DNA of 64,000 bases from Escherichia coli (GTDB taxonomy: Bacteria > Pseudomonadota > Gammaproteobacteria > Enterobacterales > Enterobacteriaceae), in the NCBI RefSeq assembly GCF_046105845.1, contig NZ_CP151004.1; one strand, 5' to 3'. The stretch's first letter is position 1. The number at the start of each line of letters is the position of its first letter. A program made the position numbers. Positions 12,001 through 15,000 of this stretch are shown piece by piece.

Positions 12001-15000
12001 CCTCTTTATATTAATCAATCGATCACACCAGATAATCAATATGCTGATGGCGTACCAACTCATTGATCCGCTTAAGATTGAGGATCATCATGATATTGTG
12101 TTTATGGCAGTAGAACGTTTTTAGCGATATTTTCAGTTTCTCCAGAATATCTTCCGTTGTCATTTGATTCGCAATGCAGCTCAGAACCTGATGCTGCTTG
12201 CGCGAAAGGGACACATCCGCTTCAGGCACAGAGCAGTAACTGCCATTGATGAGTGCGACAAAGTCGATGATGGTGATAGTTCGCGGAACAAAGGTCACCG
12301 GTACTTTCCCCAGGCAGCGTTTAATATTAAAGGGGGAGAAAATAATCACATGGACAGGTTTTAATCGTTCAATTTGAGTGAGCAAATTAGAATGAAATAC
12401 ATTATTCATTAATGTATCAATAATGACGAAGGCATGCTGATGCAACATTACGTCGATCTCTTCTTCGTTCTGTATATGAACGACATTACCTTTACTCAGA
12501 ATGTTTTTCATCGCAGTGAAGAACATCGTATCCCTGGTAATTATAAGAAACATAACCGACTCCTGGTGCGGACATTAACTTTATAATCAGTTTGCCAAAG
12601 GTAATTAACAGGACAGGGCTTATAATAATAATAGTTAGCTGGCTGTGTATTAATTTGATGTAATGCATGATGCAGATGCTGAGAAAGCATCTGCATCTCT
12701 CGGTGGTGTTATTTGACCAGCTCAGGTGTTACCTGACTCACCGCATTGGTGTAGTAAGGCGCGCCCCAGCCCGGTTCCGGCCAGAATGCACCATAGCCGT
12801 AATCCCACAGGTTATAGGTGGTATTAACCACTTCTCTCAAATGCCACACCTGGATGCCCTGCATATTCACTTCGAGGAAGTTATACGGGACTTTATTGAT
12901 AAAGCCAGGTTGTTCACCCTGAATGGTACCGAGGATGGTAACAAAGTGATTACGATAGTTCACTGGATCAAGGAAGCCGCTTTGTCTGGCGAGCAGTCGG
13001 CCCTGATAGTTGGCTTCAATATCAGGCTTCGCATAGCTATCCAACGGTAATACAGCGATTTCTAACAACGTATCCGTTTTGCCATTGATAACGTTGATAA
13101 CCTTCCCACCAAAGCGCGCTTGTTGACCAACATATAACCCCGGCTGGTTATGAACAGCAACAAAACTTTTTTGAATATCAGGTTGGTTATTGCCTTTGAT
13201 ATTTTGCGGAATTGAACTACATGCGGCAAGCAAAAATGAAAGGCTGAGGATGAGTGCACCTTTTGTCATGTTCATGTTACTATCCTTATCAACAAATATT
13301 AAAACCATAATAGATATTTCTTTATAGTTTTCATCTGATTCTGAGGCGATATGCCTGATAGTAACGTAAACCTGTCTGATGTTTATATCCCTCTGTTTAG
13401 TTTAATTCTGTTAATTTTGGGGCGTGACATGAGTATCCATCGCCCCATAAAATAGCCTTTTTTTAAAGGTACATAAAATCTATTTTATTCAATGATTATA
13501 AAGCGCTAATGTTCAATATTATGGGATTATATTCTGGTAATGATTTGATAAGCGAATTCTTTTGCCAGTTGGTATTTCTATTTCCACCCCATAATTTATA
13601 GTTTTTTCATCAGGTAGCGATCTCTTTAAATAAGGTGCGCATGACATTTTTTTTGGGTTAAGCGTCTCGCGTTGAAATACTTCGAATTGATATTCAGACA
13701 TTTCTGCCCATGTTTGAATTTTATTGTATCGGGAGAGTGTCGTAAAGGCTTTAACTTGCTTATAACATTGTTTTTTGAATTCTTGCTGATATTTTAATAT
13801 GTCATTGTATGAAATATTGGTTATCCTGGCCTCTAAGAATTTAATTATTGTCGAAGCAATTTCCGCTTTTGCTCGTAAAAAGTTGTCATTAATGGTTAAT
13901 AATGTTGAAAATAAACCTTCGATTTGTTTGTCAAGATATTGTTCGTCTTTATATAATTTGGGGGTAGGGTGTTCTTTATGTGAAAAAATAGTGTCACCTA
14001 AATTTGCGTCAGTGAAATTTATATTAAGTAGATCTTCGAAATAAAACCTTGACAAGGTTAGAACGAACCCGGACAGGTTCTGTCCTGTCATATTGAAATC
14101 AATAAAGTTGGTTCCGGCAAAGACTTTCATCCTGTTTTTATTTTCACTGTGCTCAATATATAACTTCGTCATTTTTTGATACAGGTTTTGAATATCTTTT
14201 ATATTAGTCGGTAAGTCAGCTCGTTGTTCAGCAATAAAATTAGTATCTGAAAACGTGGTTTGGACACTGAATGTTATGGGTATTCCCTCTTCTACGCTAA
14301 TTTTAGTTATGATTGCCTTGTCGGGTTTAGGATTAGCGACAACAATGATTCGACATTCAGCACTTTTGTTCTTTTCGTATCTAATGTTATTAATTTGATT
14401 AAGTAGTCCCTGTGCCTGCCGCGTAAGTGGTGTCGAACTTATCGATTCAATGTTAGTAATAAGACTTACAAGTTGAGCCACAACTTTGGAGTAGTCTGCA
14501 TTTGTATATGTGGTGTTCGTGCGGCACGCATAAATTTGTGGGAGGTGTTTCCGCGCTAAATCATATTGTTCAGGGTTGTATCCTTCTCCAGAGAATGGGG
14601 AATTAATGGGTTGTTGTTCTTCCTGATTATCACAAGGCCACATCGGTGTGTCTGGTGTTTTAACATTGTCGGTATCTGTTGTGCGGTTATAAATATCGCC
14701 GTGATATGTATTTATCATACTTGGGGTAAAGTCAATTGACATAACATTCCTTATTGTTCATCTATTTCGCTAAATTTTTGTAAATCGGAGAATTAGAGCA
14801 GGAATGGATTTTCTTCTACGCGGAAATAAACACAATGCGCCATATCTTCCTGATATAATTACCTTTAACTTCCCTTTCATTTCCACCCGGTAATATTTGT
14901 GTATAAAAAAAGGGCAGTGATAGTATCGTAAAGGAAAACGTTAACAACTATCAAAAAGCGCTCATTTTAAAAAGTTATGATGTTCTCCGATAGTGTGTGA

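Follow-up and report, generated by a model that had tools for sequence, protein, structure and literature searches.

An intact allele of Escherichia coli yhiS, a frequently inactivated gene whose product bears a putative ten-unit pentapeptide-repeat module

yhiS is an uncharacterised gene of the best-studied bacterium, Escherichia coli, and is known almost only as a pseudogene of strain K-12. Here it is considered in a 64,000-nucleotide (nt) stretch of E. coli DNA (contig NZ_CP151004.1 of assembly GCF_046105845.1; hereafter the window, at its full length), where it forms an uninterrupted frame of 407 codons on the minus strand. Judged by sequence comparison, its product appears to contain a genuine, short and degenerate member of the pentapeptide-repeat family, composed of ten tandem five-residue units followed by a linker and lying in the part of the protein on which selective constraint is concentrated. 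Taken as a whole, the evidence moderately favours reading yhiS as a dispensable, lineage-specific, probably H-NS-silenced gene that would encode a non-enzymatic scaffold built on a minimal pentapeptide β-helix and a helical domain; the functional part of this reading is held with moderate confidence. The gene and its disruption in K-12 were already known. What is added here is evidence for a ten-unit module and a constrained core, for the confinement of the gene to E. coli and for the age and mosaic structure of its alleles, together with a census of lesions.

The pentapeptide-repeat module

A sequence-only reading of the window had drawn attention to three consecutive units of the form A(D/N)(L/F)xx within the protein. 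These three units are real and essentially invariant in 91 full-length alleles, which align without gaps; their number did not stand, as the module would comprise ten units plus a linker. Taking at least eight tandem units on the pattern [STAV][DN][LF][STR][G] as the criterion, YhiS has ten. Every one of the ten pentads has F, L or M at its centre, D or N stands one position before it (i-1) in six, and a small residue occupies i-2 in four. A period-5 hydrophobic run as long as that of YhiS arose in just 7 of 20,000 shuffles of the protein. Among the 91 alleles the unit centres stay F, L, M, V or I, N and D interchange one position before, and substitutions throughout the repeat obey the pentapeptide consensus. 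The check on orthologues that the earlier reading had proposed thus came out in its favour, the segment being kept across the alleles.

Database comparisons point to the same stretch. PF00805 is the sole Pfam match of YhiS, at a score below threshold, and NCBIfam returned no match at E <= 10. When the sequences of the PDB were searched with YhiS or with a profile of 16 alleles, they yielded pentapeptide proteins only, always at positions 202-256, with Rfr32 the best (E 0.0065). In a profile search of 1.84 billion representative proteins, the matches that were not YhiS fragments were confined to positions ~181-328, and the ten of them that were checked were all strong PF00805 proteins. The E-values of this library were replaced by hhalign comparisons with 200 column-permuted controls in each of two tests. 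In the test of the alleles-only profile against the modules that YhiS had matched, the alignment reached 98% probability over 74 columns (203-277) and a score of 81.6, compared with 9.7 +/- 2.2 for the permuted controls; against canonical stretches picked by the Pfam model, it reached 88% (E 2.8e-6) over residues 217-254 and scored 31.1, compared with 8.1 +/- 2.1. Other parts of YhiS scored 6-11 in both tests. Composition, as a source of the similarity, was ruled out by these permutations.

The resemblance extends beyond the repeat. The linker that follows it aligns with QLYSTKSYQDKDLTG of modular pentapeptide proteins, and because the linker also matches, residues 203-277 as a whole resemble one ~70-residue unit of modular metagenomic pentapeptide proteins.

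Predicted structure and domain architecture

Structures were predicted with AlphaFold2 (AF2) from two alignments, one of alleles only (run 1) and one to which 21 HMMER-matched pentapeptide modules had been added (run 2). In run 2, residues 210-255 were predicted at a pLDDT (predicted local distance difference test) of 75-81 with a β-bridge each five residues, and residues 267-361 were helical at a pLDDT of 85-91. With pentapeptide modules in the alignment, residues 206-255 are therefore modelled in a manner compatible with a β-helix of about 2.5 coils. The predicted β-helix superposes at 1.5-4.4 Å on pentapeptide proteins whose structures are solved or predicted, specifically at 3.2 Å over 53 residues on MfpA and at 1.5-2.3 Å over 48-50 residues on phage pentapeptide proteins. 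The earlier reading had named two outcomes that would tell against it, a structure prediction that does not support a repeat fold and a segment not conserved among orthologues; since the segment is conserved and compatible with a β-helix, neither was encountered.

Outside the repeat, a helix spanning residues 181-198 was predicted in both runs, and residues 1-106 and 116-181 remained below a pLDDT of 50 in both. The models suggest a protein of three parts: a fast-evolving and probably disordered N-terminus, a constrained core of helix plus repeat, and a helical, repeat-like C-terminal domain. YhiS has no recognisable catalytic domain, and neither a signal peptide nor a long hydrophobic segment was obvious on reading the sequence by eye, no predictor being used.

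Allele diversity and selection

The full-length alleles differ in up to 26% of their amino acids without a single insertion or deletion (indel). Synonymous divergence (dS) in yhiS is 0.28-0.32, about ten times the 0.009-0.095 of slp and dctR in the same strains. Divergence changes abruptly along the locus, a block of ~800 bp being 15-26% diverged between flanks that differ by 0-1%. Different blocks diverge in different strain pairs, and the alleles are therefore old recombination mosaics. The window carries a different mosaic allele from the BL21 type, the two alleles sharing 94.7% nucleotide identity.

Selection on these alleles is uneven. The ratio of nonsynonymous to synonymous divergence (dN/dS) is 0.42-0.50 over the whole gene, with P(neutral) of 1e-5 to 7e-5 in deep pairs. 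By the Nei-Gojobori method (NG86), residues 1-180 are near neutral (dN/dS 0.7-1.1 against the allele of locus L003), whereas the helix at residues 181-203 reaches 0.05-0.06 (P(neutral) <= 8e-4) and the helix-repeat-linker core at residues 181-266 ranges over 0.05-0.36. When the observed 184 substitutions were placed at random, the open reading frame (ORF) was still open in 31 of 20,000 simulations. The protein appears to have been under selection, at least until recently, because its frame is open without indels over 15% nucleotide divergence, constraint falls on the structured core, and substitutions follow the pentapeptide rule. Constraint is nevertheless weak overall, and concentrated on the repeat core.

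An intact copy of a frequently broken gene

The ORF of the window is, with high confidence as to both identity and architecture, an intact chromosomal allele of yhiS, located at the junction of ars and slp and next to the acid-fitness island (PMC9729726 is cited in support of identity and context). It begins with ATG, and the annotation pipeline PGAP places the same start and stop at three other loci (L003, L005 and L097). At the composition of yhiS, 407 sense codons in a row have a probability of 2.6e-13, so the length of the frame is not due to chance. With 39 I, 37 T and 34 N among its 407 residues, the protein is as rich in these three as the sequence-only reading had stated. That reading had further stated that K-12 yhiS is disrupted by the insertion sequence (IS) IS5, and this is correct: the element sits at nt 742-746 of the coding sequence (CDS), in codon 248, at a TTAG target (PMC11677980). 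The clean frame and the absence of a nearby IS were likewise confirmed, the former by reading the ORF and the latter from the annotation of strain 19KM1831 (99.8% identical), in which no IS element is annotated across 14 kb around yhiS. The intactness of the copy, which had been singled out, proved real but not unusual, as about 40% of complete genomes, including BL21, have a full-length gene.

Some form of yhiS occurs in 5,414 of 5,426 complete genomes, and in 3,995 of them it lies in one piece. Among 60 evenly spaced complete-genome records taken as a census sample, the copy is 1,224 nt long in 25, 1,223 nt in 16 and 1,225-1,226 nt in three; four carry the K-12 IS5, 11 retain only ~375 nt, and one contains IS1. 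Grouped by class, 25 are length-preserving, 19 are frame-changing, and 16 have an IS or a large deletion. With 25 of 60 preserving length, at most 42% are intact and at least 58% broken. The gene is thus dispensable, and now broken in over half of sequenced E. coli. In K-12, neither deletion of yhiS nor its expression from a plasmid affected the minimal inhibitory concentration of chlorhexidine (PMC8170033).

Loss has occurred by at least six independent kinds of lesion among those checked. The common -1 frameshifts fall in two homopolymer runs. A slip at an A8 run in O157:H7 produces a 371-residue form, and a T7-to-T6 slip, found in four sampled strains, leads to a stop at codon 282; its presence on two allele backgrounds may reflect either recurrent slippage or recombination. 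One strain has an extra stop at codon 44. IS5 and, at several sites, IS1 interrupt the gene, and a deletion of ~850 bp leaves only its first ~375 nt, as in 11 of the 60 sampled genomes and also in E2348/69 and several uropathogenic strains. Strain AVS0753 carries a remnant of this ~375-nt type (locus L006, 3266-3645), and its locus also lacks arsB and arsR.

Annotation does not always reflect the state of the gene. The intact 407-residue ORF of 19KM1831 (locus L002, 6320-7543) is tagged 'frameshifted' by the NCBI pipeline, with only 6427-7543 annotated, although its translation contains neither frameshift nor stop; locus L001 is similarly affected, and the 3' fragment of K-12 yhiS is flagged in the same way while being in frame. 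The mislabelling likely stems from a truncated 371-residue O157 reference protein (WP_001303709). Because intact copies are mislabelled, pseudogene calls and counts at this locus are unreliable.

Distribution among organisms

yhiS appears to be confined to E. coli and Shigella, as all named relatives of the protein are from these, none of them with a Pfam domain, and the 1.84-billion-protein library holds a single full-length YhiS cluster. No relative turned up in two scans covering one genome per species, but the first, a peptide scan, missed even the E. coli representative and its sensitivity is uncertain; because of this miss, the restriction to E. coli rests mainly on the named relatives and the protein library. 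A scan of species-representative genomes with an 11-residue pattern gave 86 matches, all of them attributable to chance in genomes that are AT-rich but unrelated (tblastn E of 0.69 at best). Low-scoring, short diverged fragments from a 50% library were considered as orthologues of other species and rejected, as they come from E. coli assemblies rich in indel errors. Three such sources, GCA_019430965.1, GCA_002230845.1 and a Logan contig of SRR24775678 (loci L098, L099 and L100), have 4-20 gap openings per gene at the locus; assemblies of this kind split ars, slp, chu and yhiS and give rise to spurious 'diverged' protein clusters in large libraries.

True plasmids, phages and viral contigs contained no copy of yhiS. 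The three PLSDB records that do (NZ_CP134663.1, NZ_CP141089.1 and NZ_OL790696.1, of 4.8-4.9 Mb) are evidently whole chromosomes filed as plasmids, and PHROGs gave one non-significant match (E 0.28). These results bear on the suggestion of the sequence-only reading that yhiS was horizontally acquired. High AT content and restricted distribution, as seen in xenogeneic genes, are both present (GC 0.32-0.37 compared with ~0.50-0.55; E. coli and Shigella only), but an identifiable donor or mobile element was found neither among plasmids, phages and viral contigs nor among the representatives of other species, with the uncertain sensitivity of the species scans. Horizontal acquisition is thus suggested by composition and distribution only.

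AT-rich flanks and expression

The AT-rich setting described earlier, extending into the non-coding flanks, is borne out by the GC profile: GC is 0.32-0.34 over ~13200-14400 and stays under 0.40 as far as ~15300, between flanks of ~0.50. When the 64 kb are profiled at 1-kb resolution, only one further strongly AT-rich island appears, at 33-36 kb. The 78 'promoter islands' listed for K-12 include the arsC/yhiS and insH/slp non-coding regions. H-NS occupies both of them, and the arsC/yhiS island is bound in all chromatin immunoprecipitation data sets and scored as foreign (PMC3661553). High-affinity binding of StpA is reported for yhiS and slp-dctR (bioRxiv 10.64898/2026.02.10.705075). Because yhiS is sited in AT-rich DNA coated by H-NS and StpA in K-12, it is most likely transcriptionally silent in ordinary conditions; for the copy studied here, we infer silencing, on good grounds, from this K-12 literature. 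When YdeO was overexpressed in K-12, yhiS was unchanged, but the gene is already broken in that strain (PMC4222967).

Of the promoter-like matches in the region, the strongest (TTGTCA-18-TATAAT, 11/12) lies antisense within yhiS, at 13928-13957 (+); such sites show no excess over shuffled sequence. Intragenic promoters are usual in AT-rich DNA.

Weighing the explanations

According to the favoured explanation, the core of YhiS, helix plus ten-unit module, would fold as a short β-helix joined to the helical domain, and the protein would act as a protein-binding scaffold or adaptor. A coat of H-NS and StpA would keep the gene silent in ordinary conditions, and the frame, though preserved through very old, recombining alleles, is now broken in more than half of sequenced genomes. 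Several observations weigh against this account. In the alleles-only AF2 run, overall pLDDT was 39.7 and the repeat region, at ~25, showed no fold; the right-handed quadrilateral β-helix hence depends on the alignment, being present with the modules and absent with alleles only. Because the fold arose only with pentapeptide sequences in the alignment, the β-helix is graded as compatible, not as independently proven. None of the whole-protein matches from the fold searches was significant. Taken singly, the YhiS sequence scores 11.9 bits against PF00805 (E 0.17, residues 240-253), below the gathering cut-off of 20.2. The library E-values reach 3.5e-7, but they were downgraded because no single stretch exceeds 24.6 bits and it is the summing of repeats that makes them significant. 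The scaffold role would be read from fold classes only, and ancient alleles with recurrent loss could fit a conflict-related role equally well. Nor is the DNA itself enriched beyond its composition: the window region has 10 promoter-like sites where 9.3 +/- 3.2 are expected, and 9 matches to the H-NS nucleation motif where 5.7 +/- 2.4 are expected.

It might be held that YhiS is functionless, a slowly decaying ORF, and that the AT-rich DNA matters, if anything, by offering H-NS and StpA a platform on the border of the acid-fitness island. The broken copies in at least 58% of sampled genomes agree with such decay, as do a whole-gene dN/dS (0.42-0.50) that is high for a bacterial gene, an N-terminal half that is about neutral, flanks that are H-NS promoter islands, and the lack of a reported phenotype (PMC8170033). 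A relic is nonetheless unlikely, as the frame has stayed open without indels over 15% nucleotide divergence (31/20000 simulations; P(neutral) 1e-5), the constraint is concentrated on the structured core, and substitutions follow pentapeptide rules. The roughly tenfold excess of synonymous divergence over adjacent genes, arranged in mosaic blocks, could instead mark a conflict-interface protein (anti-phage, toxin/immunity-like or host-interacting), whose old alleles are kept by balancing or diversifying selection and whose loss reflects its cost where the antagonist is absent. Many independent knock-outs, lineage restriction and a dN/dS of about 1 in residues 1-180 would suit this role, which we nevertheless consider quite unlikely: PADLOC gave no match at E <= 10, no partner gene travels with yhiS and its neighbours are unrelated to defence, no region has a dN/dS significantly above 1, and the non-coding AT-rich flanks are also more diverged, as regional relaxed constraint would have it. 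A bolder version, in our view similarly doubtful, would have yhiS arise or be captured only in E. coli, its old alleles held by balancing selection, and its product serve as a minimal β-helix adaptor at a conflict interface (for example as a decoy against phage or host, or as a cryptic secreted effector) that is repeatedly lost where unneeded.

Two more specific proposals start from resemblances of the protein. The predicted order of its parts, with ~170 unstructured residues, a pentapeptide β-helix and a helical domain, is that of NleL (PMC3013003), which also nominally heads the Foldseek hits. Like effector genes, yhiS is AT-rich and situated in DNA bound by H-NS, and the first 30 residues of the protein are rich in S, T, N, P and I. 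YhiS might on these grounds be a type III substrate, relict or cryptic, that resembles NleL/EspX7, SopA and PipB2 in miniature, with the N-terminus as secretion signal and the β-helix and helices engaging a host protein. We regard this as very unlikely, given that no effector family of NCBIfam or Pfam is matched at E <= 10, that a HECT-like lobe is lacking, and that almost every E. coli has the gene, with or without the locus of enterocyte effacement, and that it is not phage-borne. Far less probable again is a DNA mimic of the Qnr/MfpA/AlbG type that protects or inhibits topoisomerase. QnrB1, AlbG and MfpA do appear among the weak sequence and structure matches (QnrB1 at an E of about 3), but those proteins are all-repeat rods of many coils, whereas YhiS would have about 2.5 coils in a multi-domain protein of 407 residues.

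The gain is a modest one for annotation and not a surprise. It offers a first structural handle on YhiS, to which Pfam and NCBIfam assign no family, in the form of a constrained core with one putative pentapeptide module plus a predicted helical domain. Many natural and laboratory strains, BL21 for example, carry an intact gene that can be studied. yhiS also makes a compact case for studying the persistence and decay of H-NS-coated, lineage-specific genes, since mosaic alleles of great age, a constraint that is real though weak, and six or more independent routes of inactivation come together in it.

Feature coordinates and neighbouring genes

The features of the locus are collected in Table 1. 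On one side yhiS is neighboured by chuS, dctR and slp, and on the other by an ArsP-family permease, an ArsR-type regulator, arsC, arsB and arsR. A search for intrinsic terminators between yhiS and slp was negative, the 64-kb window contains no paralogue of yhiS, and Rfam gave no match at the yhiS locus.

Table 1. Features of the yhiS locus, in window coordinates
Feature	Coordinates	Strand	Basis
yhiS CDS, intact, 407 aa + stop	13519..14742	-	ORF list; 91 full-length alleles align ungapped
Shine-Dalgarno-like AAGGA, 5 nt 5' of the yhiS ATG	14748..14752	-	read from sequence
N-terminal ~180 aa without confident structure, near-neutral in diverged allele pairs	14203..14742	-	AF2, NG86
Predicted helix, aa 181-203, ahead of repeat, strongly constrained	14134..14202	-	AF2, dN/dS
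Putative whole module (repeat + linker), aa 203-277	13912..14136	-	hmmsearch stretches, ungapped MAFFT placement, hhalign over 74 columns
Ten tandem pentads, aa 206-255	13978..14127	-	period-5 run, profile matches, AF2, allele substitutions
Three units of the sequence-only reading, aa 236-250	13993..14037	-	nearly invariant in 91 alleles
Site equivalent to K-12 IS5 insertion (TTAG target, codon 248, within repeat unit 9)	13997..14001	-	
T6 run, CDS nt 755-760; T7 in BL21-type alleles	13983..13988	-	
Predicted C-terminal α-helical domain, aa 267-361	13660..13944	-	
A8 homopolymer, codons 363-366, O157:H7 -1 frameshift site	13647..13654	-	371-aa clusters on several allele backgrounds
AT-rich upstream non-coding region	14743..15322	.	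composition; part to ~15058 common with K-12 arsC/yhiS promoter island
AT-rich spacer yhiS/slp	13276..13518	.	composition; K-12 counterpart insH/slp is the second H-NS-bound promoter island

The chu/shu haem-uptake cluster (chuS, chuA, shuT and hutW), a known strain-dependent insertion in the acid-fitness island, adjoins dctR (window ~10934-11962 and upstream; L002 1-4763) at a position taken by yhiD-hdeBA in K-12 and BL21. Between yhiS and arsC lies a divergent two-gene module, an ArsP_1-family permease at 15323-16336 (-) (PF03773, E 6e-53) and an ArsR/SmtB-type regulator at 16432-16728 (+), which is present in the window, 19KM1831 and JNE170426 and absent from K-12, BL21 and O157:H7; homology with the K-12-type locus stops near 15016-15058. 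Between the ArsR-type gene and arsC, at 16736-16825, Rfam gave matches to naRNA4 and ES036 that, at 24-30 bits, fall short of the gathering scores; they may represent a repetitive extragenic palindromic (REP)-type repeat rather than an RNA gene. The second AT-rich island (GC 0.345-0.364) contains two intact, yhiL/yhiJ-like DUF4049 paralogues of 563 and 540 residues, at 32810-34501 (+) and 34763-36385 (+), the first also with DUF6860. Their K-12 equivalents too are on the H-NS 'promoter island' list.

Comparison with known systems

The only family to which YhiS can be matched by sequence is that of the PF00805 proteins, which include Rfr32 (2f3l/2g0y), Rfr23 (2o6w) and MfpA (2bm5) and have tandem five-residue units in common with it. 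Compared with these, YhiS would have only about 2.5 coils, has a small residue at i-2 in four of its ten units and falls below the Pfam gathering score, and its repeat occupies little of a protein in three parts, of which the N- and C-terminal ones are unrelated. The whole-protein rod of about 8-10 coils that characterises Qnr and MfpA has no counterpart in a protein where the repeat accounts for 50 of 407 residues. Residues 203-277 align ungapped to one ~70-residue module plus linker of the modular metagenomic proteins with 'QLYSTKSYQDKDLxG' linkers (P0162, P0163, P0165 and P0173, two of them labelled 'YjbI with pentapeptide repeats'); these proteins chain 4-11 modules where YhiS has one, and identity is about 30%. 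With NleL (EspX7) and SopA, YhiS shares its predicted domain order, enterobacterial origin and AT-richness (PMC3013003), but it lacks sequence or fold similarity beyond the repeat as well as the HECT-like bilobed domain, and the β-helix is 200 residues long in NleL compared with 50 predicted in YhiS.

At the level of the locus, the window has the same AT-rich flanks as the K-12 promoter-island genes, on whose list arsC/yhiS and insH/slp both appear (Panyukov and Ozoline 2013), although its promoter-like sites are no commoner than composition predicts and its upstream neighbour is the ArsP permease instead of arsC. The K-12 pseudogene itself (b3504, P37635; yhiS_1/yhiS_2) is the same gene at the same locus, and apart from IS5 its allele is the intact one of BL21, whereas the copy in the window is uninterrupted and represents a different mosaic allele.

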